Below, one piece after another: positions 2,458-57,446 of a DNA stretch of 64,000 nucleotides. A program made the position numbers and the translations under genes. The DNA lies in NCBI RefSeq assembly GCF_988243305.1, contig NZ_OZ547136.1. One strand, given 5' to 3'. The notes under the pieces are model-generated. The model was not told where the DNA came from and searched no databases. It saw nothing but the letters and a program-made list of their open reading frames with translations. Each line of letters opens with the position of its first letter. The first letter of the stretch is position 1.

Positions 2458-2524
2458 TGTTTGGGTTCAAGATTAGCCCCCGTGATGTTGTCAGGTGCAT
2501 ACCTGCAATATGCGGGGGTTTTCT
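2458..2524 (+). ncRNA. Rdl-type antisense sRNA (copy 1), ends in GC hairpin plus U-run
   Basis: cccccg...cggggg stem followed by ttttctctc; lies antisense to the ldr 5' leader; exact 5' end not determinable from sequence. Confidence 0.45.
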
Positions 2525-2785
2525 CTCTCCAGCAACCAATGCCACTAGGGATTAAGCCCCCGCAACATTGCGCCTCACCGGAACCCTTCCGGCTTGCCGC
2601 TGATTCTACGGCCATTTTTGTTCGTCGAAATCCATCACTTCTTCACTCTGTGCTGCGCATTCCGCAGAATATTATCCGCTTGCAACCGTTGCATTTTTCT
2701 TACGAAAAAGGCCGCAGAGTTTTATCCCTGCGGCCTGATCCGGGCGCAAATTGCCATTACGGCAGCCTGACGCCCGTCTGACACG

Positions 2786-2893
2786 TTACTTCCGCTTGTT
2801 CAGCCAGTTCACGATCAGACTGGCAAGAATGCCAGCAATGACCGGAGCCGCTAAATCATGCCAGAAGGCCATGCCCAGCTCTGCGAGCGTCAT
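2786..2893 (-). CDS. Ldr-family type I toxin, 35 aa (copy 2)
   Basis: MTLAELGMAFWHDLAAPVIAGILASLIVNWLNKRK; ATG at 2891-2893 on minus strand. Confidence 0.85.
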   Translation of the reverse strand: MTLAELGMAFWHDLAAPVIAGILASLIVNWLNKRK

Positions 2894-2940
2894 ATAGCCG
2901 CCTGAGTTGTAATGACAACGTTTCGCGGCTATTCTTGTAT

Positions 2941-3007
2941 TGTTTGGATGCAAGAATGGCCCCCGTGGTGTTGTCAGGTGCATACCTGCAACGTGCGGGG
3001 GTTTTCT
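2941..3007 (+). ncRNA. Rdl-type antisense sRNA (copy 2)
   Basis: Same hairpin plus U-run terminator as copy 1, offset by one repeat period. Confidence 0.45.
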
Positions 3008-3268
3008 CTCTCCAGCAACCAATGCCACCAGGGATAAAGCCCCCGCAACATTGCGCCTCACCGGAACCTTTCCGGCTTGCCGCTGATTCTACGACTGTTT
3101 TTCTGCTCCGGAATCCGTCACTTCTTCACTCTGTGCTGTGCATTCCGCAGAATATTATCCGCTTGCAACCGTTGCATTTTTCTTACGAAAAAGGCCGCAG
3201 AGTTTTATCCCTGCGGCCTGATCCGGACGCAACTTGCCATTACGGCAGCCTGACGCCCGTCTGACACG

Positions 3269-3376
3269 TTACTTCCGCTTATTCAGCCAATTCACGATCA
3301 TGCTGGCAAGAATGCCAGCAATGACCGGAGCCGCTAAATCATGCCAGAAGGCCATGCCCAGTTCTGCGAGCGTCAT
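3269..3376 (-). CDS. ldrD: Ldr-family type I toxin, 35 aa (copy 3, closest to the K-12 LdrD sequence as I recall it)
   Basis: MTLAELGMAFWHDLAAPVIAGILASMIVNWLNKRK; ATG at 3374-3376 on minus strand. Confidence 0.85.
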   Translation of the reverse strand: MTLAELGMAFWHDLAAPVIAGILASMIVNWLNKRK

Positions 3377-3425
3377 ATAGCCGCCTGTGTTGTAATGACA
3401 ACGTTTCGCGGCTATTCTTGAGTGG

Positions 3426-3492
3426 TCTAGGTTCAAGATTAGCCCCCGTGATGTTGTCAGGTGCATACCTGCAACGTGCGGGGGTTTTCTCT
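3426..3492 (+). ncRNA. Rdl-type antisense sRNA (copy 3)
   Basis: Hairpin cccccgtgatg...cgtgcggggg followed by ttttctctctcc. Confidence 0.45.
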
Positions 3493-11060: not shown

Positions 11061-11596
11061 CAACGGTGAGAATCCACAAACAAAGATTAAAAAAACTTCA
11101 AACAGCTATTTGCAGCAGAGAAATTTGTGCTACTCCAACATGACCAGAACAATCAGCTTAATATTTAGCAACAATTGGTGATTAAGTTTTATGCATTTTG
11201 TGAAAAAAATCTGAGGAAAAGGTGGATATCTGAGCGATTAATACCATGAACGCTAAAACGCACAGCGGAAAATGCCAGCGCCAGTCATAAGTAACGCAAA
11301 AAAAGATTTAAGCAAATATAAAAAAAGACAATGGTTTCTGTCACAAATCCGTTAATGGATAGTGAGATATGGGGCGCAAATTTGGCAGGGAAATGTGTGG
11401 TGTGTTGCCGTTTAGATCGGATAAGACGGATACGCTGTATCCCACAATGAGTGCGGTGCCGAATTTGGTCGGTGCCAGAGGATTACTCGCCACTTCGTGG
11501 CTCGCCCTGCGGGCCGTTGCTGGCGCAACGTTCTCTCGCTTCGCTCGAGTCGAACCTCCCTGCCCCCGGAGGTTCTCATCCTCATAGGCTACAAAT

Positions 11597-11624
11597 GCAA
11601 AAAAGCCTGCTCGTTGAGCAGGCT
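11597..11624 (-). terminator. Rho-independent terminator downstream of proK
   Basis: Hairpin agcctgctcgttgagcaggct flanked by A-run on plus strand (U-run on minus). Confidence 0.75.
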
Positions 11625-11633
11625 TTTCGAATT

Positions 11634-11710
<77 letters not shown>

Positions 11711-22899: not shown

Positions 22900-22907
22900 G
22901 CACATCA

Positions 22908-23066
22908 ACGGTTTGACGTACAGACCATTAAAGCAGTGTAGTAAGGCAAGTCCCTTCAAGAGTTATCGTTGATACCCCTCGTAGTGCACATTCCTTTAAC
23001 GCTTCAAAATCTGTAAAGCACGCCATATCGCCGAAAGGCACACTTAATTATTAAAGGTAATACACT
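22908..23066 (+). promoter_or_regulatory. cspA 159-nt 5' UTR (cold-box / RNA thermosensor leader)
   Basis: Leader beginning ACGGTTTGACGTACAGACC... runs to the ATG at 23067; established cspA biology. Confidence 0.8.
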
Positions 23067-23279
23067 ATGTCCGGTAAAATGACTGGTATCGTAAAATGGT
23101 TCAACGCTGACAAAGGCTTCGGCTTCATCACTCCTGACGATGGCTCTAAAGACGTGTTCGTACACTTCTCTGCTATCCAGAACGATGGTTACAAATCTCT
23201 GGACGAAGGTCAGAAAGTGTCCTTCACCATCGAAAGCGGCGCTAAAGGCCCGGCAGCTGGTAACGTAACCAGCCTGTAA
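23067..23279 (+). CDS. cspA: Major cold-shock protein CspA (70 aa)
   Basis: [70 protein letters not shown]. Confidence 0.98.
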
Positions 23280-23306
23280 TCTCTGCTTAAAAGCACAGAA
23301 TCTAAG

Positions 23307-23337
23307 ATCCCTGCCATTTGGCGGGGATTTTTTTATT
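23307..23337 (+). terminator. cspA rho-independent terminator
   Basis: Hairpin tccctgcc-attt-ggcgggga followed by tttttttatttg. Confidence 0.8.
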
Positions 23338-23466
23338 TGTTTTTCAGGAAATAAATAATCGATCGCGTAATAAAATCTATTATTATTTTTGTGAAAAATA
23401 AATTTGGGTGCAATGAGAATGCGCAACGCCGTAAGAAAGGCGGGAATAACTTCCCGCCGAAGACTC

Positions 23467-23619
23467 TTACTCTTTCAAATTGCAGGCTAAAAATGCCGCC
23501 AGCTCATAACTCCCCTGTTTAATATGCAATTCACACAGTGAATCTCTTATCATCCAGGTGAAAAATAAAAGCGTGCAACAAATCACTATTAAAGAAAGTA
23601 ATCTATATTTCTGCGGCAT
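23467..23619 (-). CDS. hokA: Hok-family type I toxin HokA (50 aa)
   Basis: MPQKYRLLSLIVICCTLLFFTWMIRDSLCELHIKQGSYELAAFLACNLKE; an in-frame 20-codon upstream extension exists in the ORF track. Confidence 0.85.
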   Translation of the reverse strand: MPQKYRLLSLIVICCTLLFFTWMIRDSLCELHIKQGSYELAAFLACNLKE

Positions 23620-23896
23620 TCCCAGCCTCCTGTGTTGATTTCCAACGAGTAAGAGGCTAACCTTATGGTGTTCAGGCATAGGGTAGCCTCACTTTGATTT
23701 ATAGTCAGGTGGGGCTTTTCTCTGTCTGCCTTTCGGTGAATACCTGAGACAAACAGTCTCAAGCACCCGCAGCTATTCTAGCTTAATAAGTTCGTTTCTT
23801 CTCCTTGATATAATCCTAAAAAAATCTCATAAAATTAATATATGAGACAATCTTTATTCAGCAGAAGATTATTAAAGGTTGCTCTATTATTTAGCG

Positions 23897-33821: not shown

Positions 33822-35363
33822 ATGCCTTATCTACTTGAAATGAAGAACATTACCAAAACCTTCGGCAGTGTGAAGGCGATTGATAACGTCAGCTTGCGGT
33901 TGAATGCTGGCGAAATCGTCTCACTCTGTGGGGAAAATGGGTCTGGTAAATCAACGCTGATGAAAGTGCTGTGTGGTATTTATCCCCATGGCTCCTACGA
34001 AGGCGAAATTATTTTTGCGGGAGAAGAGATTCAGGCGAGTCACATCCGCGATACCGAACGCAAAGGTATCGCCATCATTCACCAGGAATTGGCCCTGGTG
34101 AAAGAATTGACTGTGCTGGAAAATATCTTCCTGGGTAACGAAATAACCCACAATGGCATTATGGATTATGACCTGATGACACTACGCTGTCAGAAGCTGC
34201 TCGCACAGGTCAGTTTATCCATTTCACCCGATACCCGCGTTGGCGATTTAGGGCTTGGGCAACAACAACTGGTTGAAATTGCCAAGGCACTTAATAAACA
34301 GGTGCGTTTGTTAATTCTCGATGAACCGACAGCCTCATTAACTGAGCAGGAAACGTCGGTTTTACTGGATATTATTCGCGATCTGCAACAGCACGGTATC
34401 GCCTGTATTTATATTTCGCACAAACTCAACGAAGTCAAAGCGATTTCCGATACGATTTGCGTTATTCGCGACGGTCAGCACATTGGTACGCGTGATGCTG
34501 CCGGAATGAGTGAAGACGATATTATCACCATGATGGTCGGGCGAGAGTTAACCGCGCTTTACCCTAATGAACCACATACCACCGGAGATGAAATATTACG
34601 TATTGAACATCTGACGGCATGGCATCCGGTTAATCGTCATATTAAACGAGTTAATGATGTCTCGTTTTCCCTGAAACGTGGCGAAATACTGGGTATTGCC
34701 GGACTCGTTGGTGCCGGACGTACAGAGACCATTCAGTGCCTGTTTGGCGTGTGGCCCGGACAATGGGAAGGAAAAATTTATATTGATGGCAAACAGGTAG
34801 ATATTCGTAATTGTCAGCAAGCCATCGCCCAGGGGATTGCGATGGTCCCCGAAGACAGAAAGCGCGACGGTATCGTTCCGGTAATGGCGGTTGGTAAAAA
34901 TATTACCCTCGCCGCACTCAATAAATTTACCGGCGGTATTAGCCAGCTTGATGACGCGGCAGAGCAAAAATGTATTCTGGAATCAATCCAGCAACTCAAA
35001 GTTAAAACGTCGTCCCCCGACCTTGCTATTGGACGTTTGAGCGGCGGTAATCAGCAAAAAGCGATCCTCGCTCGCTGCCTGTTACTCAACCCGCGCATTC
35101 TCATTCTTGATGAGCCTACCAGGGGTATCGATATTGGCGCGAAATACGAGATCTACAAATTAATTAACCAACTCGTCCAGCAGGGTATTGCCGTTATTGT
35201 CATCTCTTCCGAATTACCTGAAGTGCTCGGCCTTAGCGATCGTGTACTGGTGATGCATGAAGGGAAACTAAAAGCCAACCTGATAAATCATAACCTGACT
35301 CAGGAGCAGGTGATGGAAGCCGCATTGAGGAGCGAACATCATGTCGAAAAGCAATCCGTCTGA
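33822..35363 (+). CDS. xylG: D-xylose ABC transporter ATP-binding protein XylG (513 aa, duplicated ABC domains)
   Basis: Two Walker A motifs (GENGSGKST and GLVGAGRTE) and two ABC signatures. Confidence 0.95.
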
Positions 35364-36522
35364 AGTGAAATTGGCCGTACCGACATCCGGTGACTTTTCC
35401 GGGCTGAAGTCACTGAATTTGCAGGTCTTCGTGATGATTGCAGCTATCATCGCAATCATGCTGTTCTTTACCTGGACCACCGATGGTGCCTACTTAAGCG
35501 CCCGTAACGTCTCCAACCTGTTACGCCAGACCGCGATTACCGGCATCCTCGCAGTAGGAATGGTGTTCGTCATAATTTCTGCTGAAATCGACCTTTCCGT
35601 CGGCTCAATGATGGGGCTGTTAGGTGGCGTCGCGGCGATTTGTGACGTCTGGTTAGGCTGGCCTTTGCCACTGACCATCATTGTAACGCTGGTTCTGGGA
35701 CTGCTTCTCGGTGCCTGGAACGGATGGTGGGTCGCGTACCGTAAAGTCCCTTCATTTATTGTCACTCTCGCGGGCATGTTGGCATTTCGCGGCATACTCA
35801 TTGGCATCACCAACGGCACGACTGTTTCCCCCACCAGCGCCGCGATGTCACAAATCGGGCAAAGCTATCTACCCGCCAGCACCGGCTTCATCATTGGCGC
35901 GCTTGGCTTAATGGCTTTTGTTGGCTGGCAATGGCGCGGAAGAATGCGCCGTCAGGCTTTGGGTTTGCAGTCTCCGGCCTCTACCGCAGTTGTCGGTCGC
36001 CAGGCATTAACGGCGATTATCGTCTTAGGCGCAATCTGGCTGTTGAACGATTACCGTGGCGTTCCCACTCCTGTTCTGCTGCTGACGTTGCTGTTACTCG
36101 GCGGAATGTTTATGGCAACGCGGACGGCATTTGGACGACGCATTTATGCCATCGGCGGCAATCTGGAAGCAGCACGGCTCTCCGGGATTAACGTTGAACG
36201 CACCAAACTTGCCGTGTTCGCAATTAACGGATTAATGGTAGCCATCGCCGGATTAATCCTCAGTTCTCGACTTGGCGCTGGTTCACCTTCTGCGGGGAAT
36301 ATCGCCGAGCTGGACGCAATTGCAGCATGCGTGATTGGCGGCACCAGTCTGGCAGGCGGCGTCGGGAGCGTGGCCGGAGCGGTAATGGGGGCATTCATCA
36401 TGGCTTCACTGGATAACGGCATGAGTATGATGGATGTACCGACCTTCTGGCAGTATATCGTTAAAGGTGCGATTCTGTTGCTGGCAGTATGGATGGACTC
36501 CGCAACCAAACGCCGTTCTTGA
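35341..36522 (+). CDS. xylH: D-xylose ABC transporter permease XylH (393 aa)
   Basis: Polytopic permease; 23-bp overlap with xylG. Confidence 0.95.
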
Positions 36523-42496: not shown

Positions 42497-42595
42497 GCCT
42501 GATGCGCTACGCTTATCAGGCCTACATGATTTCTGCAATATATTGAATTTGGTAGAATTTGTAGGCCGGATAAGGCGTTTTAGCCGCATCCGGCA
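42497..42595. repeat. BIME: two REP palindromes in inverted orientation
   Basis: gcctgatgcgctacgcttatcaggcctac (42497-42525) and gtaggccggataaggcgttttagccgcatccggca (42561-42595). Confidence 0.8.
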
Positions 42596-47626: not shown

Positions 47627-48613
47627 ATGAAATTACGCTCTGTAACCTACGCATTATTCATTGCTGGCCTGACTGCATTCAGCACATCTTCTCTGGCGGC
47701 ACAATCTTTACGTTTCGGTTATGAAACCTCACAAACCGACTCGCAACATATTGCGGCGAAAAAATTCAATGAATTATTACAGGAAAAAACCAAAGGCGAA
47801 CTGAAATTAAAATTGTTTCCGGATAGCACCCTCGGTAATGCGCAGGCGATGATCAGCGGCGTGCGTGGCGGCACTATTGATATGGAGATGTCTGGCTCTA
47901 ACAACTTTACGGGGCTCTCGCCCGTCATCAACCTGCTCGACGTCCCTTTCCTGTTCCGCGATACCGCTCACGCGCATAAAACGCTCGACGGCAAAGTCGG
48001 TGATGATCTGAAAGCCTCACTTGAAGGTAAGGGACTGAAAGTACTGGCCTACTGGGAAAACGGCTGGCGCGATGTCACCAACTCGCGCGCACCGGTTAAA
48101 ACCCCCGCCGACCTGAAAGGGCTGAAAATTCGCACCAACAATAGCCCGATGAATATCGCCGCATTCAAAGTCTTTGGCGCTAACCCGATCCCGATGCCGT
48201 TTGCCGAAGTCTATACCGGGCTGGAAACGCGCACTATCGACGCTCAGGAACACCCGATCAACGTCGTCTGGTCAGCAAAATTTTTCGAAGTACAGAAGTA
48301 CCTTTCTCTGACGCACCACGCCTATTCGCCACTTCTGGTGGTGATCAACAAAGCGAAGTTTGATGGCTTAAGCCCGGAATTCCAGCAGGCGCTGATCTCA
48401 TCTGCGCAGGAAGCGGGTAACTACCAGCGCAAACTGGTTGCTGAAGATCAGCAAAAAATCATCGATGGCATGAAAGAAGCGGGCGTGGAAGTCATCACCG
48501 ATCTCGACCGCAAAGCCTTTAGCGACGCGCTGGGTACTCAGGTCCGCGACATGTTTGTAAAAGATGTTCCGCAGGGCGCTGACCTGCTGAAAGCCGTGGA
48601 TGAGGTGCAATAA
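47627..48613 (+). CDS. yiaO: TRAP transporter periplasmic solute-binding protein YiaO
   Basis: 328-aa DctP-like protein with signal peptide. Confidence 0.9.
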   Translation: MKLRSVTYALFIAGLTAFSTSSLAAQSLRFGYETSQTDSQHIAAKKFNELLQEKTKGELKLKLFPDSTLGNAQAMISGVRGGTIDMEMSGSNNFTGLSPVINLLDVPFLFRDTAHAHKTLDGKVGDDLKASLEGKGLKVLAYWENGWRDVTNSRAPVKTPADLKGLKIRTNNSPMNIAAFKVFGANPIPMPFAEVYTGLETRTIDAQEHPINVVWSAKFFEVQKYLSLTHHAYSPLLVVINKAKFDGLSPEFQQALISSAQEAGNYQRKLVAEDQQKIIDGMKEAGVEVITDLDRKAFSDALGTQVRDMFVKDVPQGADLLKAVDEVQ

Positions 48614-48616
48614 ACC

Positions 48617-50113
48617 ATGACGCAATACTGGCTGGGGTTAGATTGTGGCGGTAGCTGGCTGAAAGCCGGGCTGTATGACCGCGAAGGCCGGGAGGCAGGC
48701 GTGCAGCGCCTGCCGCTGTGCGCATTAAGCCCGCAGCTAGGTTGGGCAGAGCGCGATATGGCAGAACTGTGGCAATGCTGCATGGCTGTCATTCGCGCCC
48801 TGCTTACTCATACTGGCGTTAGCGGGGAACAAATAGTGGGTATCGGCATCTCCGCACAGGGAAAGGGCTTGTTTTTGCTGGATAAAAACGACAAGCCGCT
48901 CGGTAACGCCATTTTGTCCTCGGATCGCCGGGCGATGGAAATCGTTCGTCGCTGGCAGGAAGATGGCATCCCGGAAAAACTCTACCCGCTGACGCGACAA
49001 ACCTTGTGGACCGGGCATCCGGTGTCGCTGTTACGCTGGCTGAAAGAGCACGAACCGGAACGCTACGCGCAAATTGGCTGCGTGATGATGACGCACGACT
49101 ACCTGCGCTGGTGTTTAACCGGCGTCAAAGGTTGCGAAGAGAGCAATATTTCTGAGTCCAATCTCTACAACATGAGTCTTGGGGAATATGACCCGTGCCT
49201 CACCGACTGGCTGGGGATCGCTGAAATCAACCACGCCCTGCCGCCTGTTGTCGGATCTGCCGAAATCTGCGGGGAAATCACCGCTCAGACAGCCGCACTG
49301 ACCGGTCTGAAAGCGGGTACGCCCGTTGTCGGCGGCCTGTTTGATGTGGTTTCCACCGCACTCTGTGCCGGGATCGAAGACGAATTTACCCTTAATGCGG
49401 TGATGGGCACCTGGGCGGTGACCAGCGGAATAACCCGTGGTTTACGTGACGGTGAAGCGCATCCGTATGTCTATGGTCGCTACGTTAACGATGGTCAATT
49501 TATCGTTCACGAAGCCAGCCCCACCTCTTCCGGCAACCTCGAATGGTTTACCGCACAGTGGGGAGAAATCTCGTTTGATGAGATTAACCAGGCCGTTGCC
49601 AGCTTGCCAAAGGCCGGGGGCGATCTCTTTTTCCTGCCGTTCCTGTACGGCAGCAACGCCGGACTCGAGATGACCAGCGGTTTCTACGGGATGCAGGCCA
49701 TTCACACCCGCGCACACCTGTTGCAGGCCATTTATGAAGGCGTGGTGTTCAGCCATATGACCCATCTCAACCGGATGCGCGAACGTTTTACTGATGTGCA
49801 CACCCTGCGCGTCACTGGCGGCCCGGCGCATTCCGATGTCTGGATGCAAATGCTGGCGGACGTCAGCGGGCTGCGTATCGAACTGCCGCAGGTGGAAGAA
49901 ACCGGCTGCTTTGGTGCGGCACTTGCCGCCCGCGTCGGCACCGGAGTTTATCGCGATTTCAGCGAAGCCCAACGTGATTTACAGCACCCGGTACGCACCC
50001 TGCTGCCGGATATGACCGCCCATCAGCTTTACCAACAAAAATACCAACGCTATCAGCATCTCATTGCCGCACTTCAGGGCTTTCACGCCCGCATCAAGGA
50101 GCACACATTATGA
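48617..50113 (+). CDS. lyxK: L-xylulose/3-keto-L-gulonate kinase LyxK
   Basis: 498-aa FGGY-family kinase. Confidence 0.9.
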   Translation: MTQYWLGLDCGGSWLKAGLYDREGREAGVQRLPLCALSPQLGWAERDMAELWQCCMAVIRALLTHTGVSGEQIVGIGISAQGKGLFLLDKNDKPLGNAILSSDRRAMEIVRRWQEDGIPEKLYPLTRQTLWTGHPVSLLRWLKEHEPERYAQIGCVMMTHDYLRWCLTGVKGCEESNISESNLYNMSLGEYDPCLTDWLGIAEINHALPPVVGSAEICGEITAQTAALTGLKAGTPVVGGLFDVVSTALCAGIEDEFTLNAVMGTWAVTSGITRGLRDGEAHPYVYGRYVNDGQFIVHEASPTSSGNLEWFTAQWGEISFDEINQAVASLPKAGGDLFFLPFLYGSNAGLEMTSGFYGMQAIHTRAHLLQAIYEGVVFSHMTHLNRMRERFTDVHTLRVTGGPAHSDVWMQMLADVSGLRIELPQVEETGCFGAALAARVGTGVYRDFSEAQRDLQHPVRTLLPDMTAHQLYQQKYQRYQHLIAALQGFHARIKEHTL

Positions 50114-50772
50114 GCCGACCACTTCTGCAACTGGCCCTCGACCACTCATCACTTGAAGACGCACAGCGCGACGTGATGCTGTTAAAAGACAGCGTCGATA
50201 TCGTCGAAGCGGGCACCATTCTCTGTTTAAACGAAGGGCTTGGCGCAGTGAAAGCCTTGCGCGAACAGTGCCCGAACAAAATCATCGTCGCTGACTGGAA
50301 GGTCGCCGATGCCGGTGAAACGCTCGCGCAACAGGCGTTTGGCGCAGGCGCTAACTGGATGACCATCATCTGCGCCGCACCGCTCGCGACGGTAGAAAAA
50401 GGTCACACAATGGCGCAACGCTGCGGTGGTGAAATCCAGATCGAGCTGTTCGGTAACTGGACGCTGGACGACGCCCGCGACTGGCATCGTATTGGCGTGC
50501 GGCAGGCGATTTATCATCGTGGTCGTGATGCACAGGCCAGCGGGCAACAGTGGGGCGAAGCCGATCTGGCACGCATGAAGGCGCTTTCCGATATCGGCCT
50601 TGAGCTTTCCATTACCGGCGGTATTACTCCTGCTGATCTGCCACTGTTTAAAGATATTCGCGTGAAAGCGTTTATTGCCGGGCGAGCACTGGCAGGCGCG
50701 GCAAATCCGGCACAGGTGGCAGGCGATTTCCATGCGCAAATCGACGCTATCTGGGGAGGCGCGCGTGCGTAA
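50110..50772 (+). CDS. sgbH: 3-keto-L-gulonate-6-phosphate decarboxylase SgbH
   Basis: 220-aa OMP-decarboxylase-like ORF; 4-bp overlap with lyxK. Confidence 0.9.
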
Positions 50773-51625
50773 TCATCCGTTAGGGATTTATGAAAAAGCG
50801 CTGGCGAAAGATCTCTCCTGGCCGGAGCGGCTGGTGCTGGCAAAAAGCTGCGGCTTTGATTTTGTCGAAATGTCGGTGGATGAAACTGACGAGCGTCTGT
50901 CACGCCTTGACTGGAGCGCCACACAAAGGACTTCGCTGGTTGCCGCGATGATCGAAACGGGTGTTGCCATTCCGTCAATGTGCCTGTCCGCACATCGTCG
51001 CTTTCCCTTTGGTAGCCGTGACGACGCGGTACGCCAGAGAGCACGGGAGATCATGAGTAAAGCGATTCGCCTGGCGCGCGATCTCGGCATTCGTACTATT
51101 CAACTGGCAGGTTACGACGTCTATTACGAAGACCACGACGAAGGCACCCAGCAACGTTTTGCTGAAGGGCTGGCGTGGGCGGTCGAACAGGCGGCGGCAT
51201 CACAAGTCATGCTGGCAGTGGAGATTATGGATACCGCGTTTATGAACTCCATCAGCAAATGGAAAAAATGGGACGAGATGCTCGCCTCGCCGTGGTTCAC
51301 CGTCTACCCGGACGTCGGCAACCTCAGCGCCTGGGGCAATGATGTTCCCGCCGAACTGAAACTGGGCATTGATCGTATCGCCGCGATCCACCTGAAAGAC
51401 ACCCAGCCAGTCACCGAGCAAAGCCCCGGACAGTTCCGCGACGTGCCGTTTGGCGAAGGCTGCGTCGATTTCGTTGGCATCTTCAAAACGCTGCATGAAC
51501 TGAACTATCGCGGTTCTTTCCTGATTGAGATGTGGACCGAAAAAGCCAAAGAGCCGGTGCTGGAGATTATTCAGGCGCGGCGCTGGATTGAAGCGCGTAT
51601 GCAGGAGGCTGGATTTATATGTTAG
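50765..51625 (+). CDS. sgbU: L-xylulose-5-phosphate 3-epimerase SgbU (286 aa, GTG start)
   Basis: GTG at 50765 gives 286 aa starting (M)[22 protein letters not shown]; overlaps sgbH stop. Confidence 0.88.
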
Positions 51626-52314
51626 AGCAACTGAAAGCCGACGTGCTGGCGGCAAATCTGGCACTTCCCGCTCACCATCTGGTGACGTTCACCTGGGGCA
51701 ATGTCAGCGCGGTAGACGAAGCGCGGCAATGGATGGTAATCAAACCTTCCGGCGTCGAGTACGACGTGATGACCGCCGACGATATGGTGGTGGTTGAGAT
51801 AGCCAGCGGTAAGGTGGTAGAAGGCAGTAAAAAGCCCTCGTCCGACACGCCAACGCATCTGGCGCTTTACCGTCGCTATGCCGAAATCGGTGGCATTGTG
51901 CATACCCACTCGCGCCACGCCACCATCTGGTCGCAGGCTGGGCTGGATCTCCCCGCCTGGGGCACCACGCACGCTGATTATTTCTATGGTGCCATCCCCT
52001 GCACGCGACAGATGACCGTAGAGGAGATTAACGGCGAATATGAATATCAGACCGGCGAAGTGATCATTGAAACTTTCGAAGAACGCAGCAGGAGTCCGGC
52101 ACAAATCCCGGCGGTACTGGTACATTCTCACGGCCCGTTCGCCTGGGGAAAAAATGCCGCCGATGCGGTGCATAACGCCGTGGTGCTGGAAGAGTGTGCC
52201 TATATGGGCCTGTTCTCGCGCCAGCTTGCGCCGCAGCTCCCTGCGATGCAAAACGAACTGTTAGATAAGCACTACCTGCGTAAGCATGGGGCCAATGCCT
52301 ATTACGGGCAGTAA
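51619..52314 (+). CDS. sgbE: L-ribulose-5-phosphate 4-epimerase SgbE
   Basis: 231-aa class II aldolase/AraD-like ORF; 7-bp overlap with sgbU. Confidence 0.9.
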
Positions 52315-52345
52315 TCCCTCACGCCGGGGCTTCATTGCCCCGGCA

Positions 52346-53161
52346 CTACGAATTGATATGTTCCTTGCTGTAACGTCGCTTCCACGCAGCTGGCGTTAAA
52401 CCGGTGTGTTTGCGAAAAATCTGCCGGAAATAGCCAACGTCATTAAACCCGCACAACGCCGCCACTTCAGTGAGCGATCGCGCTTCGCTAATTAACAGCT
52501 TTTCGGCTTCGCGCACTCGCTGGCGATGAATTGCTTCTGTTAACGTCAGATGAAACACCCGCCGATAGACGCGCCCAAGATAATCGGCATTGCAGTACAG
52601 CTCGCGGGCTAAAAGCGCCGTGGAAAGCGGGCGATGATATTGCGTGCGGATCAGTTTCTGCGCTTTCCAGGCAAGCGTGGTACCTGCGGCATCGGCCTGT
52701 TCATCAAGACGCGCGTCACGGGTGAGTTGCTGCAAAATCAGCAGCACAATAAACTCCAGCGCCGGAGTGCGTTGATGCTTTTCCTGTTCGCTTAAGAACT
52801 GGCGAAACAGGGCCACCAGCGCCTGCGGATCGGCAACCTTCGTTTGTTGCGGCACGCTAAGATGAGTGAGCCAGCGCGGGTCGCTATCCGGCGCTTTAAC
52901 CTCAAAATGCAGCCAGTAAAATTTGAGATCGGCGGGAAAATCCTCTACCCCAACATGCTGTCGGTTCGGCCAGAGTAATAAACTCTCTCCCGCATCGACC
53001 AGAAATATCCGCTCTTCTTCCTGAATCGCTAATCGACCTTTTTCGACAAAGATAATTTCCCATGACTCCAGCCGCCTTGCCGGATGCCTCCCTACGCCAC
53101 GGGAAATAAATAATCCACCATTTTGCACTTTAATCGGTAACGTTATGGATAATTCGAGCAT
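52346..53161 (-). CDS. AraC-family transcriptional regulator (cupin-like sensor domain plus C-terminal double HTH)
   Basis: 271-aa ORF; C-terminal AraC signature region ...LSTALLARELYCNADYLGRVYRRVFHLTLTEAIHRQRVREAEKLL...GFNDVGYFRQIFRKHTGLTPAAWKRR; divergent from transporter gene. Confidence 0.85.
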   Translation of the reverse strand: MLELSITLPIKVQNGGLFISRGVGRHPARRLESWEIIFVEKGRLAIQEEERIFLVDAGESLLLWPNRQHVGVEDFPADLKFYWLHFEVKAPDSDPRWLTHLSVPQQTKVADPQALVALFRQFLSEQEKHQRTPALEFIVLLILQQLTRDARLDEQADAAGTTLAWKAQKLIRTQYHRPLSTALLARELYCNADYLGRVYRRVFHLTLTEAIHRQRVREAEKLLISEARSLTEVAALCGFNDVGYFRQIFRKHTGLTPAAWKRRYSKEHINS

Positions 53162-53386
53162 TGATATGTAATTTCCCGCTTATTCATTAATGATTAAACA
53201 CATTACCTTTTGATTATGAATCAAAAACATTAATTTCACCTGATCCAATTCACACTTTTAAATTCAGGTCGGAATCGTCACCTTTTTTTACTCTTTTCTC
53301 GCCTTGTTGATATTCCCGTTCACGGCAGAATTAATCATGTCATTGCAATAAAACTAAAAATTGCTCCCTATTCACGAGGAATATCT

Positions 53387-54787
53387 ATGACCTCTACACC
53401 GATTACTGCCGCTGATATCGCTAAAGGTAAAATTGACGATGCGTTATCTGTACGGGAAAAAATAGGCTACGGCCTGGGTGACGCAGGCGGCACCGTAATA
53501 ACTTGCCTGATCATGAACTTTCTCACCTTTTTCTACACCGACGTTTTTGGCTTAACTCCGGCGCTGGTCGGCACGCTGTTTATTGCACTGCGCGTGTTTG
53601 ATGCCATCTCCGACCCGGTGATGGGCGTCATTGCCGACCGGACGCAAAGTCGCTGGGGGCGCTTTCGTCCGTGGCAGTTATGGATTGCCATTCCCATCGG
53701 CATTATCGGCATCCTGACGTTCACCGTGCCAGATGCCAGCATGGGAGTAAAAATCGCCTGGGCGTTCGGCACTTACCTGCTCCTTTCAGTCGGTTATACC
53801 GCCATCAACGTGCCGTACTGCGCGCTGATCAACACCATGACCACCCGCCACAATGAAGTGATCTCCTGCCAGTCCTGGCGATTCGTTCTCTGCGGCGTAG
53901 CGGGATTTCTGGTTTCGGTAGGCTTACCGTGGATGGTAGATCTCTTCGGTCAGGGTAATGCCGCGCGCGGCTATCAACTGGGCGTCGGCGTGCTGTGCGC
54001 CATCGCTGTGGTGATGTTCCTGTGCTGTTTCTTCTGGGTTCGTGAACGGGTGCCACTCTCCACAATGGGGAAATTTACCCTGCGCGAACATCTTGCCGGG
54101 CTGCGAAACAACGACCAACTACTGCTGATGCTGGTCATGTCTTTCCTGCTGATTAACGTCTTTAACATTCGCGGCGGTGGGTATATGTACTTCATTACCT
54201 ACGTCTTACAAGGCAGTACGGGCTACACGTCGCTGTTCTTCACCATGGTCACCTTCGCCTCCATTATCGGCTCGGTGATTGTCAGCCCGTTAACGCGGCG
54301 TTTCGATACCGTCAAAATTTATTACTACACCAACCTGCTCCTCGCTGCGCTGGCGGTGTTGATGTGGTTCCTGCCCTCCGGCCCGGCTTATCAAACGCTG
54401 TGGCTGGCGGTGATCCTCGGTAATGGCGTGATTCTTGGCTTCACATTGCCACTGCACTTCTCATTGATGGCCTTTGCCGATGACTACGGCGAGTGGAAAA
54501 CCCGCGTACGTTCTTCCGGCATGAACTTCGCCTTCAATCTGTTTTTCATCAAACTGGCCTGGGCCTCCAGCGCCGGGATCATCAGCCTGCTGTTTATTTT
54601 TGTCGCCTACCAGCCAGGCGTGGAAAACCAGACCACCAGTTCGCTTGGCGGGATCACGGCGATGGAAACATTACTGCCTGCGCTATTCCACCTGCTGCTG
54701 GCAGGGGCGATCCGCTTTTGCAAACTCAATAACCCTATGATGTCACGCATTGCTACCGACCTGCGTCAGCGTCATGTACAGCCTTAA
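53387..54787 (+). CDS. GPH-family (MelB-like) glycoside:cation symporter
   Basis: 466-aa 12-helix protein with GPH N-terminal signature GYGLGDAGG...[17 protein letters not shown]...[28 protein letters not shown]. Confidence 0.88.
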
Positions 54788-54797
54788 GGAGCACAAG

Positions 54798-56762
54798 ATG
54801 AACATTTCGGAAGTCGATCTGCATAAACTGACGGTCAGCGATCCGTTCCTCGGTCAGTACCAACAACTGGTCCGCGATGTGGTGATTCCTTATCAGTGGG
54901 ACGCCTTGAACGATCGTATCCCAGAAGCGGAACCCAGCCATGCGATTGAAAACTTTCGCATTGCCGCAGGACTGCAAGACGGTGAATTTTACGGGATGGT
55001 GTTTCAGGACAGCGACGTCGCCAAATGGCTGGAAGCGGTAGCCTGGTCGCTGTGCCAGAAGCCGGATGCCGAACTGGAAAAAACCGCTGACGAGGTAATC
55101 GAACTGGTCGCTTCCGCCCAGTGCGAAGATGGCTATCTCAATACTTACTTTACGGTAAAAGCGCCCGAAGAACGCTGGAGCAATCTGGCGGAGTGTCATG
55201 AACTTTACTGCGCCGGTCATCTGATTGAAGCCGGAGTCGCCTTCTTCCAGGCCACGGGCAAGCGGCGCTTGCTGGAAGTGGTTTGCCGTCTGGCCGATCA
55301 TATCGACAGCGTATTTGGTCCAGGTGAAAGTAAGTTACACGGTTATCCTGGTCACCCGGAAATTGAACTGGCGCTAATGCGCCTGTATGAAGTGACCGAA
55401 GAGCCGCGCTACCTGGCGCTGACGAACTATTTTGTCGAACAGCGTGGTGCGCAACCGCACTATTACGACCAGGAATATGAAAAGCGCGGGCAGACCTCGC
55501 ACTGGCACACCTACGGCCCGGCGTGGATGGTGAAAGATAAAGCCTACAGCCAGGCGCATTTGCCCATCGCACAGCAACAAACCGCCATCGGACATGCAGT
55601 ACGCTTTGTATATCTGATGACTGGCGTCGCACATCTGGCGCGTTTAAGTCACGATGAAAGCAAGCGTCAGGATTGCCTGCGGCTGTGGAACAATATGGCC
55701 CAGCGTCAGTTATATATTACCGGCGGCATTGGCTCACAAAGCAGCGGCGAAGCGTTCAGCAGCGATTACGATCTGCCGAATGACACGGTTTACGCCGAAA
55801 GCTGTGCTTCCATCGGCCTGATGATGTTCGCCCGGCGAATGCTGGAAATGGAAGGCGACAGTCAATATGCCGATGTGATGGAGCGCGCACTGTACAACAC
55901 CGTGCTCGGCGGCATGGCGCTGGATGGCAAACATTTCTTCTATGTGAATCCGCTGGAAGTACATCCAAAATCGCTGAAATTCAACCATATCTACGATCAC
56001 GTTAAGCCGATCCGCCAGCGTTGGTTTGGTTGCGCTTGTTGTCCGCCAAATATCGCCCGCGTGCTGACCTCGATTGGTCATTATCTCTACACGCCGCGTG
56101 AAGATGCGTTGTATATCAACATCTACGCAGGAAACAGCATGGAAGTGCCGGTAGAAAATGGCACGTTGCGCCTGCGGGTTAGCGGGAACTATCCGTGGCA
56201 GGAACAGGTGACAATTGCGGTTGAATCGCCCCAGCCGGTGCGTCATACGCTGGCTTTACGTCTGCCGGACTGGTGCACACAGCCGCAGATCATATTGAAT
56301 GGGGAAGAGGTCGGGCAGGATATTCGTAAAGGGTATTTGCACATTACCCGCGAATGGCAGGAGGGCGACACACTGAATCTGACTTTGCCAATGCCGGTAC
56401 GTCGCGTTTACGGTAACCCTCTGGTGCGTCACGTCGCCGGAAAAGTGGCGATTCAGCGCGGCCCGCTGGTGTATTGCCTGGAACAGGCCGACAACGGCGA
56501 GTCACTGCATAACCTGTGGCTGCCTACCGATGCGCCATTTACGACCTTTGACGGCAAGGGATTGTTCCGCCATAAGATCTTAATCCAGGCACCGGGTTAC
56601 CGGTATGAACAGAGCAATCCAGAGCAGCAACCGCTGTGGCATTACGACAGCGCGCCAGCCAAACGCCAGCCGCAAACCCTGACCTTTATCCCGTGGTTTA
56701 GCTGGGCCAACCGGGGTGAAGGCGAAATGCGGATCTGGGTGAATGAGGAAACCAGCGCATGA
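54798..56762 (+). CDS. Glycoside hydrolase family 127-like protein (DUF1680; predicted beta-L-arabinofuranosidase)
   Basis: 654-aa ORF from ATG 54798 with SD aaggag 11 bp upstream; contains ESC and CACC motifs matching my recollection of the GH127 Glu-x-Cys / Cys-Cys zinc and nucleophile site. Confidence 0.72.
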   Translation: MNISEVDLHKLTVSDPFLGQYQQLVRDVVIPYQWDALNDRIPEAEPSHAIENFRIAAGLQDGEFYGMVFQDSDVAKWLEAVAWSLCQKPDAELEKTADEVIELVASAQCEDGYLNTYFTVKAPEERWSNLAECHELYCAGHLIEAGVAFFQATGKRRLLEVVCRLADHIDSVFGPGESKLHGYPGHPEIELALMRLYEVTEEPRYLALTNYFVEQRGAQPHYYDQEYEKRGQTSHWHTYGPAWMVKDKAYSQAHLPIAQQQTAIGHAVRFVYLMTGVAHLARLSHDESKRQDCLRLWNNMAQRQLYITGGIGSQSSGEAFSSDYDLPNDTVYAESCASIGLMMFARRMLEMEGDSQYADVMERALYNTVLGGMALDGKHFFYVNPLEVHPKSLKFNHIYDHVKPIRQRWFGCACCPPNIARVLTSIGHYLYTPREDALYINIYAGNSMEVPVENGTLRLRVSGNYPWQEQVTIAVESPQPVRHTLALRLPDWCTQPQIILNGEEVGQDIRKGYLHITREWQEGDTLNLTLPMPVRRVYGNPLVRHVAGKVAIQRGPLVYCLEQADNGESLHNLWLPTDAPFTTFDGKGLFRHKILIQAPGYRYEQSNPEQQPLWHYDSAPAKRQPQTLTFIPWFSWANRGEGEMRIWVNEETSA

Positions 56763-56786
56763 TGCGACGCTTAACGCGTCTTATCA
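56762..56786. repeat. REP-like imperfect palindrome at the 3' end of the GH127 gene
   Basis: gatgcgacgc-ttaa-cgcgtcttatc. Confidence 0.4.
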
Positions 56787-56833
56787 GTATCAACATATCG
56801 GTGCGGTTGCCCGCCAACCATCGAAACGCGAGA

Positions 56834-57244
56834 TTAAACGCCCGGCAATACACGCCGGGCAGCTTCCGCCAGAAACGCACTTCTGTTGGCATAGTCTGGG
56901 TTATTGCGCACGTAGGTATCAATCTTGTTCAGTAATCTTTTTGGCATCGTAATATTGATACGTTCAGCCCGACCTTCGAACTGATTCATATTGATATCCA
57001 CCAGCAACCATTGCCCGCCAATAAAGTCCTGCGCACGCTGGACCAGATGTGTTTCCACAGAGCCTGGAAGCGGCAACTCTTCATTCATCTCGCATAAGGT
57101 TTCGAAGTGCGCGACCAGTGCACTTCGCGCATCCTGGAAAGCGTAGTCCAGCGTATCACCAGCAAAATAACAGCCTGGAACATCAGGGAAAAAACCGCTG
57201 GCACTGCCGTCAGGATCACTGTGGATATAGGCGGGATAAAACAT
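56834..57244 (-). CDS. hicB: HicB-family antitoxin (N-terminal HicB fold plus C-terminal ribbon-helix-helix)
   Basis: 136-aa ORF MFYPAYIHSDPDGSASGFFPDVPGCYFAGDTLDYAFQDARSALVAHFE... with C-terminal RHH-like NRSAFLAEAARRVL; strong SD aggagg upstream. Confidence 0.8.
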   Translation of the reverse strand: MFYPAYIHSDPDGSASGFFPDVPGCYFAGDTLDYAFQDARSALVAHFETLCEMNEELPLPGSVETHLVQRAQDFIGGQWLLVDINMNQFEGRAERINITMPKRLLNKIDTYVRNNPDYANRSAFLAEAARRVLPGV

Positions 57245-57260
57245 ATTGCCTCCTGAAATT

Positions 57261-57446
57261 TTAAAATGTTAAACCAGCCTGACGCCCAATTTGCGCCAGC
57301 GTACCGGGCTTAATATCTTTTTTAGGGTGCGGAACCGTCACCAGACCCGGATGAACAGGGTGGCGGAACTGATGATGACTGCCACGGGTTCGAATATGTT
57401 CCCAGCCATGCTGCTTCAGGATGGCGATCACGTCTGCACTTTTCAC
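57261..57446 (-). CDS. hicA: HicA-family toxin (YcfA-like mRNA interferase, 61 aa, GTG start)
   Basis: (M)KSADVIAILKQHGWEHIRTRGSHHQFRHPVHPGLVTVPHPKKDIKPGTLAQIGRQAGLTF; conserved GSH...H and VTVPHP..D motifs; 16 bp upstream of hicB. Confidence 0.8.
   Translation of the reverse strand: MKSADVIAILKQHGWEHIRTRGSHHQFRHPVHPGLVTVPHPKKDIKPGTLAQIGRQAGLTF

Follow-up and report, generated by a model that had tools for sequence, protein, structure and literature searches.

The trpE-trpD and trpB-trpA pairs of the trp operon, where coupling was shown genetically, are the classical cases of translational coupling. Native E. coli pairs that overlap by four nucleotides (-4) and are coupled by termination-reinitiation include hyfH-hyfI, astD-astB, ydbH-ynbE and menD-menH (Huber et al. 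2019, 2023). Coupling was seen in 4 of the 5 native -4 pairs tested, and removal of the Shine-Dalgarno sequence (SD) lowered reinitiation in 4 of the 5 (PMC6728339). Moreover, coupling efficiency dropped strongly as the distance between the genes increased (PMC10666635). The E. coli ula (sga) operon, with ulaD-ulaE-ulaF, encodes enzymes homologous to SgbH, SgbU and SgbE in the same order and at very short spacing. Here we examine the lyxK-sgbH-sgbU-sgbE genes within a window of 64,000 nucleotides (assembly GCF_988243305.1, contig NZ_OZ547136.1), where an initial annotation had read a chain of overlapping start and stop codons as tight translational coupling.

Operon identity and overlap geometry

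The gene order and orientation in the ORF map (yiaJ<->yiaK-L-M-N-O-lyxK-sgbH-sgbU-sgbE) are those of the E. coli yiaK-S operon. The window is syntenic with annotated regions of E. coli GMF065 and K-12 MG1655, and a match was found in 5287 of 5426 complete E. coli genomes. NCBIfam profiles assign SgbH, SgbU and SgbE end to end to the KGPDC, L-ribulose-5-P 3-epimerase and L-ribulose-5-P 4-epimerase families. SgbH matched NF009831 (residues 1-220 on profile positions 1-220; 447.6 bits, cut-off 294), SgbU matched TIGR00542 (522.8 bits, cut-off 272) and NF009689 (1-285 of 286 positions), and SgbE matched NF009002 (1-231 of 231 positions; 508.5 bits, cut-off 386). LyxK is an FGGY kinase whose NCBIfam FGGY matches, XylB among them, lie under the cut-off, and PGAP names it L-xylulokinase. 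The nine yiaK-S genes are treated as one co-regulated operon, derepressed jointly in a yiaJ deletion (PMC6237786; PMC6958661). No promoter-like site was found on the plus strand within 48.6-52.3 kb, promoter-like sites being no more frequent than in shuffles. Similarly, terminator-like sites in the sgb region showed no excess over shuffles and no Rfam family was found there. Under laboratory conditions the operon is repressed.

Direct reading bore out the overlaps of 4, 8 and 7 bases that had been described, together with the GTG start of sgbU (Table 1). The same overlap coordinates occur in the PGAP annotation of the closest RefSeq genome and in K-12 MG1655, and all four distances, including that of xylG/xylH, are already present in the genome-wide K-12 table in the supplement of Huber et al. 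(2023). End-to-start overlaps of the sgb genes are an ordinary, already known feature of compact bacterial operons, and statistically the pattern across the four genes does not stand out. Of the 19 co-directional junctions less than 50 nt apart that PGAP annotates in the syntenic 64 kb, 9 are overlaps. Spacings of -8 to +6 nt account for 707 of the 2,987 unidirectional pairs of E. coli K-12, the commonest overlaps being -4, -1 and -8 (PMC10666635). Arithmetic from the published K-12 totals, assuming independence, leads us to expect dozens of runs of three such junctions per genome.

Table 1. Genes, overlaps and SDs of the sgb and xyl junctions (SD energies are for pairing with the 16S 3' end).
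Feature	Position	Strand	Details	Basis
lyxK (L-xylulokinase) CDS	48617..50113	+	498 aa; stop TGA 50111-50113	ORF/translation, PGAP, K-12 annotation
sgbH (3-keto-L-gulonate-6-phosphate decarboxylase) CDS	50110..50772	+	220 aa; start ATG 50110; stop TAA 50770-50772	
sgbU (L-ribulose/L-xylulose-5-phosphate 3-epimerase) CDS	50765..51625	+	286 aa; start GTG 50765; stop TAG 51623-51625	
sgbE (L-ribulose-5-phosphate 4-epimerase) CDS	51619..52314	+	231 aa; start ATG 51619	
lyxK/sgbH overlap	50110..50113	+	4 nt, ATGA	Direct sequence reading
sgbH/sgbU overlap	50765..50772	+	8 nt, GTGCGTAA	Direct sequence reading
sgbU/sgbE overlap	51619..51625	+	7 nt, ATGTTAG	Direct sequence reading
SD for sgbH	50096..50101	+	AAGGAG; lyxK codons Lys-Glu; 8 nt before ATG; -7.7 kcal/mol	
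SD for sgbU	50753..50759	+	GGGGAGG; SgbH codons Trp-Gly-Gly; 5 nt before GTG; -11.3 kcal/mol	
SD for sgbE	51603..51608	+	AGGAGG; SgbU codons Gln-Glu-Ala; 10 nt before ATG; -11.0 kcal/mol	
xylG CDS	33822-35363			Direct sequence reading
xylH CDS	35341-36522			Direct sequence reading
xylG/xylH overlap	35341..35363	+	23 nt; SD GAGGAG at 35327-35332	

Start codons of the overlapping genes

The overlaps would be artefacts if at least one start codon were wrongly annotated, for instance if sgbU began at another codon upstream or downstream. Every in-frame ATG, GTG and TTG near each start was enumerated. An in-frame ATG at 50732 would give an SgbU of 297 aa and an overlap of 41 nt; a few database entries have this length (P0003), and the K-12 protein record stands at version NP_418039.2, which suggests an earlier revision. 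However, the SD of this ATG is badly spaced (-7.0 kcal/mol, ending at -13) and the ATG itself consists of SgbH His-Ala codons (CAT GCG) read in another frame. Moreover, an in-frame start upstream of sgbU is lacking in 46 of 81 loci, and SgbU orthologues are overwhelmingly 286 aa long with a common N-terminus. This ATG, the sole serious alternative, was rejected because its SD spacing is poor, orthologues have a different length and most species lack it.

The next in-frame starts downstream are at codon 21 of sgbH, codon 23 of sgbU and codon 8 of sgbE. All have weak SDs, and their use would cost N-terminal residues that are aligned in homologues: SgbH residues 1-216 align with residues 1-216 of UlaD (PDB 1kv8), and SgbE residues 1-231 with residues 1-231 of AraD (PDB 1jdi). 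The predicted N-termini are M-S-R-P (SgbH), M-R-N-H (SgbU) and M-L-E-Q (SgbE). In other species the start offset of orthologues relative to E. coli is 0 in nearly all of 80 loci, and in other genera the sgbU start codon is an ATG at the identical position. By SD, orthologue, profile and PDB comparison, no credible downstream start removes any of the overlaps, and an error in the start codons is extremely unlikely.

Within E. coli the sgbH/sgbU junction is polymorphic, only 84 genomes being identical over 61 nt. The GTG start of sgbU is kept in 3 of 4 sampled junction variants; an allele with GCG in place of GTG has an exact match in one genome.

Embedded SDs and conservation of the junctions

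The SDs of sgbH, sgbU and sgbE all lie within the preceding gene (Table 1), and the mean duplex energies in orthologues are -8.5, -7.7 and -11.2 kcal/mol, respectively. AAGGAG is kept in most Enterobacterales loci for sgbH, 'tgggga' is conserved across loci for sgbU, and GAAGGAGG is conserved in other genera for sgbE. Synonymous codons at the ends of the upstream genes are also skewed towards those that form SDs. Counted over orthologous loci, uncorrected for phylogenetic relatedness, Lys is AAG at 37/37 and Glu is GAG at 41/44 positions in the SD zone of lyxK (gene-body values 27% and 40%), whilst Gly is GGA at 41/61 positions in that of sgbH (gene-body value 12%) and at 88/143 in that of sgbU (gene-body value 8%). 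The terminal codons of lyxK, sgbH and sgbU would be under dual constraint, and conservation there is not to be attributed to the protein alone.

Only two junctions conserve the exact overlap length: lyxK/sgbH, which is -4 in 52 of 62 orthologous loci, and sgbU/sgbE, which is -7 (ATGYTAR) in 58 of 76, including those of Pasteurellaceae, Tolumonas and Cardiobacterium. This conservation is partly trivial, given that only an insertion can undo an overlap. The sgbH/sgbU distance is -8 in 15 of 63 loci and otherwise -4, -1, +1, +2 or +3, rarely +14 or +21; what is conserved here is therefore a near-zero distance with an SD and not the exact overlap. Among the 60 loci having all three junctions, 56 hold every one of them within -8 to +3 nt and in 33 all three overlap.

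Among overlaps the -8 class ranks third in frequency, and -7 lies outside the enriched classes (PMC12548453). Since the sgbU/sgbE overlap is nevertheless kept so widely, AUGYUAR may have been selected specifically as a reinitiation element that sets the SgbU:SgbE ratio, an idea we regard as unlikely. Were it correct, the Cys present almost universally at the SgbU C-terminus would result from the overlapping start codon and would not be a functional residue. The second codon of SgbE, Leu (always TTA or CTA), was considered as proof of selection, on the grounds that it is forced by the overlapping TAG/TAA stop. This was dropped, as araD, which does not overlap its upstream gene, also begins ATG TTA GAA; the TTA that makes the sgbU stop was therefore already present in the family, and the overlap does not impose it.

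Rare database ORFs join the products across these junctions: P0005 and P0008 combine PF00215 with PF01261, and P0007 and P0120 combine PF01261 with PF00596. Such ORFs could be taken as a sign of programmed frameshifting or read-through yielding SgbH-SgbU or SgbU-SgbE fusions. However, each is a metagenomic cluster with a single member, as faulty assembly or mutation could produce; no slippery heptamer was seen by eye at either junction, nor an Rfam element in the region. Programmed fusion is therefore scarcely credible.

Probable coupling and comparison with known systems

The sgb junctions share two features of coupled pairs, namely distances of -4, -8 and -7 and a downstream SD within the upstream coding sequence. 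A ribosome ending lyxK, sgbH or sgbU would be held by the embedded SD and reinitiate at the adjoining start, so that synthesis of the four sequential enzymes from one mRNA would be linked in amount, while some ribosomes would also initiate independently at these SDs. From the anatomy of the junctions and by analogy with the E. coli pairs tested elsewhere, we consider that SD-assisted termination-reinitiation probably couples translation from lyxK to sgbE. A literature search for sgbH together with translational coupling found no paper linking them.

The other of the two accepted models of coupling (PMC12548453) is RNA unfolding, in which secondary structure hides the ribosome-binding site of the downstream gene and only a ribosome translating the upstream gene can open it. 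Local 101-nt windows around the four starts (the three sgb starts and that of xylH) were folded and compared with 200 dinucleotide shuffles. The minimum free energy z-scores were +0.86, +0.65 and +0.45 at the three sgb junctions and +0.77 at xylG/xylH, with 133 to 161 of the 200 shuffles folding at least as well, and the SDs were unpaired in the centroid structures. Unfolding is thus very unlikely as the mechanism, although it is the more plausible of the two models for the longer xylG/xylH overlap.

That overlap had been mentioned alongside those of the sgb genes. Its length of 23 nt is exact, an identical overlap occurs in Leclercia, Cedecea, Franconibacter and one record labelled Aeromonas, and the XylH N-terminus MSKSNPSE is conserved. 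However, coupling efficiency decreases with longer overlaps and none is seen at -25 nt (PMC12548453). An extension of coupling to xylG/xylH is thus the weakest part of the claim, and coupling is less likely there than at the sgb junctions.

The overlaps could also be neutral by-products of operon compaction, arising where an upstream frame continues until the first stop that it meets close to or beyond the next start, with each gene translated solely from its own SD. All three SDs are strong and well spaced and the RNA at the junctions folds no more strongly than the shuffled controls, so that initiation de novo is equally possible at each start. Moreover, the position of the sgbH stop varies between species from -8 to +3 about a fixed SD-to-start module. 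SgbH residues 1-216 account for all of UlaD, so the last four residues (GARA), which form the overlap, are a non-homologous tail extending past the UlaD C-terminus. In the paralogous ulaD/ulaE pair the gap is +9 with the SD in the spacer, araD has the identical ATGTTAGA start without any overlap, and among the five -4 pairs studied, bioBF was initiated de novo (PMC6728339). Against this reading, the other four of those pairs are coupled. The 56 of 60 loci that hold all junctions within -8 to +3 nt avoid the peak at +9 to +12, which Huber et al. (2023) attribute to E. coli pairs with independent initiation or long-range coupling. Furthermore, a terminating ribosome covers the SD and start region, which makes some interaction hard to avoid. 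Independent initiation alone is therefore a serious but somewhat unlikely account of the overlaps.

Taken together, co-directional genes, overlaps of 4-8 nt and a strong SD in each upstream gene fit a coupled unit, as initially proposed. The word 'tight', by contrast, went beyond what was read from the junctions, given the strong SDs, the unremarkable folding, the drifting sgbH/sgbU distance and the ula spacings of +9 and -1. If real, coupling would help to hold the kinase, the decarboxylase and both epimerases of the L-ascorbate / 2,3-diketo-L-gulonate branch in fixed proportions, possibly with less build-up of sugar-phosphate intermediates. Re-engineering of the operon or single-gene knock-outs should keep the embedded SDs and overlaps, as polar effects on translation may otherwise follow. 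Beyond correct annotation the finding is of little importance.

The sgb junctions resemble hyfH-hyfI-type pairs in being co-directional and probably on one mRNA, with an overlap of a few nucleotides and the SD in the upstream gene, and lyxK/sgbH has the same ATGA. They differ in that two of the three are -8 and -7 and not -4, and coupling at sgb is predicted from sequence. Moreover, the sgb products act in sequence as monomeric or homomeric enzymes and are not subunits of one complex; the table of Huber et al. (2023) marks them 'CMPLX not'. Much the same holds for trpE-trpD and trpB-trpA, which share overlapping or abutting stop and start codons, enzymes of one pathway and an SD in the upstream gene, whereas their products are subunits of heteromeric enzymes, those of sgb are not, and only for the trp pairs does coupling go beyond prediction. 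The sgbE homologue araD, of araBAD, has the same first codons and a GAAGGAG SD, but lies 284 nt downstream of araA. The SDs of the ula operon (TAAGGAG, GGAGG) also fall within the upstream gene or at its end. However, ulaD and ulaE are separated and ulaE/ulaF overlap by 1 nt, and UlaD ends in Trp-Gly, whereas SgbH continues for four more codons across the sgbU start.

Overlapping genes of the sgb region

Stop and start codons overlap along lyxK-sgbH-sgbU-sgbE, the last four genes of the yiaK-S operon. The overlap lengths claimed by the initial annotation, that of xylG/xylH included, and the GTG start of sgbU can all be read in the sequence, and the four lengths are equal in the PGAP annotation and in K-12. 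Its gene names are likewise those used by PGAP for the best-matching genome and in K-12 MG1655. This confirms both the overlaps and the annotation. Huber et al. 2023 already list the four distances in a supplementary table (lyxK/sgbH -4, sgbH/sgbU -8, sgbU/sgbE -7 and xylG/xylH -23, negative values being overlaps in nt), and overlaps of this kind are well known.

Genes, overlaps and Shine-Dalgarno (SD) sequences, as read from the sequence
Gene	Coordinates	Start codon	Overlap with next gene	SD (location; pairing energy, kcal/mol)
lyxK	48617-50113		ATGA, 50110-50113, 4 nt	
sgbH	50110-50772		GTGCGTAA, 50765-50772, 8 nt	AAGGAG, 50096-50101 (inside lyxK; -7.7)
sgbU	50765-51625	GTG	ATGTTAG, 51619-51625, 7 nt	GGGGAGG, 50753-50759 (inside sgbH; -11.3)
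sgbE	51619-52314	ATG	last gene	AGGAGG, 51603-51608 (inside sgbU; -11.0)
xylG	33822-35363		23 nt	
xylH	35341-36522			

In frequency terms there is nothing unusual in this chain. Nine of the 19 co-directional junctions less than 50 nt apart in the syntenic annotation overlap: bcsE/F, bcsF/G, dppD/F, tag/yiaC, xylG/H, selA/B and the three sgb junctions. Across the E. coli genome the distance seen most often is -4, then -1 and -8; 707 of 2,987 unidirectional pairs fall in the range -8 to +6 (PMC10666635). Arithmetic on these figures gives an expectation of dozens of runs of three successive junctions of the -8 to +6 class per genome, even if junctions are independent.

The window is a stretch of the E. 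coli chromosome with the gene order bcsG - dpp - xyl - malS - yiaJ - yiaKLMNO-lyxK-sgbHUE - aldB - selBA. A 5-kb query (48000-53000) found matches in 5287 of 5426 complete E. coli genomes, and the closest complete RefSeq genome is just 98.8% identical, so this lineage is sparsely represented among complete genomes. From lyxK to sgbE (48617-52314) identity to K-12 is 95.6% at equal length. Genes for an AraC-family regulator, an MFS transporter, a GH127 glycoside hydrolase and hicB/hicA lie 3′ of sgbE (52346-57446), whereas in K-12 this place holds just the pseudogene remnants ysaC and ysaD, followed by yiaT-yiaU-yiaV-yiaW. Between sgbE and the convergent AraC-family gene, which are 31 nt apart, lies a GC-rich inverted repeat, GCCGGGGC ttcatt GCCCCGGC (52323-52344), likely the stem of a bidirectional terminator; as it lacks a T-run, the terminator scan did not flag it. 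Elsewhere in the window (2459-3490, 11466-11710, 22907-23768 and 42518-42560), Rfam matches comprise three rdlD antitoxin RNAs, RtT with a tRNA, a cspA thermoregulator, a sok antitoxin and the ES036 sRNA.

Start codons

Downstream starts that would abolish the overlaps were sought by enumerating all in-frame ATG, GTG and TTG codons. The next candidates, at sgbH codon 21, sgbU codon 23 and sgbE codon 8, were rejected: each has a weak SD, and starting there would cut off N-terminal residues that are aligned in homologues. The annotated proteins match NCBIfam models end to end (SgbH 1-220/220, SgbU 1-285/286, SgbE 1-231/231). Moreover, SgbE 1-231 aligns with AraD 1jdi 1-231, SgbH 1-216 with UlaD 1kv8 1-216, and SgbU 3-285 with UlaE 3cqh.

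Upstream, some database entries start sgbU at the in-frame ATG 50732, 11 codons 5′ of the GTG, a choice that would lengthen the protein to 297 aa and the overlap to 41 nt. Its SD is badly spaced and the ATG is a side product of SgbH His-Ala codons; nor can this start be conserved, given that 46 of 81 loci lack any in-frame sgbU start upstream. The great majority of SgbU orthologues are 286 aa long and share an N-terminus; the start is ATG at the same codon in most other genera and GTG in both Escherichia loci and a few scattered others. The K-12 SgbU record stands at version 2, which suggests a past revision of the start. SgbU residue 5 (50777-50779) is Pro in the window, invariant among 15 aligned genera, and Gln in K-12 and in an E. 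coli protein cluster of 2349 members (P0004).

Leclercia, Cedecea, Franconibacter and a record labelled Aeromonas all conserve the 23-nt xylG/xylH overlap, its GAGGAG SD and MSKSNPSE as the N-terminus of XylH. In the window, xylH codon 9 is GTG (35365-35367), 1 nt past the xylG stop and without an SD. In orthologues it encodes Leu, Met, Val or Ile, and is therefore a potential second start in some species that would abolish the overlap.

Junctions within E. coli and across species

E. coli genomes vary over the 61 nt that surround the sgbH/sgbU junction (84 are identical, 3071 at 95-99%), with the GTG and 8-nt overlap retained in three of four sampled variants. E. coli 2012C-4502 carries GCG for the sgbU GTG (locus L086 1229-1231, window 50765-50767), and PGAP calls an ATG 21 nt upstream instead, giving 293 aa and a 29-nt overlap; this exact allele occurs in 1 of 5426 genomes.

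An alignment of 15 SgbU orthologues served to fetch 80 loci from other species, in which the four genes were placed by tblastn and their stops and starts derived. The lyxK/sgbH distance (62 loci) is -4 in 52 and -1 in three, with gaps of 3 to 33 nt in seven. That of sgbH/sgbU (63 loci) varies: -8 (15), -4 (9), -1 (12), +1 (9), +2 (14), +3 (2), +14 (1) and +21 (1). At sgbU/sgbE (76 loci) it is -7 in 58, including Pasteurellaceae, Tolumonas and Cardiobacterium, -4 in 15 (the Pantoea/Erwinia group), -8 in one and +26 in two. Among the 60 loci with all three junctions, 33 overlap at every one and 56 lie within -8 to +3 throughout; ten match the -4/-8/-7 pattern exactly. Purifying selection on both proteins would alone preserve an overlap, since undoing one is hard without an insertion. 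The invariably TTA or CTA Leu2 codon of SgbE was rejected as proof of an overlapping-stop constraint: araD, separated by 284 nt from its upstream neighbour, likewise opens with ATG TTA GAA. The sgbU stop may simply exploit an ancestral codon.

Pasteurellaceae loci (L063-L084) keep the 7-nt sgbU/sgbE overlap with no lyxK/sgbH homologue directly upstream and a gene order unlike the enterobacterial operon. Escherichia albertii NBRC 107761 (L006 1742-3508) has one 588-aa ORF joining LyxK 1 to ~389 in frame with SgbH 8-220, a ~390-nt deletion having taken out the junction; what is left encodes a fusion protein or is a gene in decay. Rare database ORFs (P0005, P0008, P0007, P0120, P0026 and P0027) are SgbH-SgbU or SgbU-SgbE fusions, or SgbU extended to 343 aa in the wrong frame across sgbE, and probably result from frameshift mutations or misassembly at the overlaps.

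Coupling and embedded ribosome-binding sites

The tight translational coupling proposed in the initial annotation is plausible overall as a mechanism at the sgb junctions. Coupling efficiency drops steeply with growing stop-start distance (PMC10666635), and a review places it best at -4 to +3, weaker with longer overlap and absent at -25 nt (PMC12548453); four of five native E. coli -4 pairs show SD dependence (PMC6728339). By analogy, lyxK and sgbH are very likely coupled, sgbH-sgbU and sgbU-sgbE probably so, and, given the distance of -23 nt, xylG-xylH coupling is doubtful, at least via reinitiation. Our literature search found no paper tying sgbH to translational coupling. Predicted folding of the junction RNAs is no stronger than that of shuffled sequences (z +0.45 to +0.86), which counts against an RNA-unfolding model and leaves the strong SDs free for independent initiation. 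There is no Rfam family in the sgb region, and predicted promoter-like and terminator-like sites in 44.0-53.5 kb are not above shuffled controls; the literature handles yiaK-S as a single YiaJ/PlaR-repressed unit.

The three SD motifs recur in loci of other species, and synonymous codons in the -18 to -4 zone are skewed to SD-forming ones, in counts that ignore shared ancestry. On such counts, with the gene-body share in brackets, AAG makes up 37/37 Lys codons of the lyxK tail (27%) and GAG 41/44 Glu codons (40%); GGA makes up 41/61 Gly codons of the sgbH tail (12%) and 88/143 of the sgbU tail (8%). The SgbH residues GARA (217-220), source of the 8-nt overlap, extend beyond the point where the homologous UlaD fold ends. 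The paralogous ula operon has a 9-nt spacer with the SD at the corresponding place, and its ulaE/ulaF genes overlap by 1 nt. What is conserved is therefore a unit of SD, short spacer and start, the upstream stop falling within a few nucleotides.
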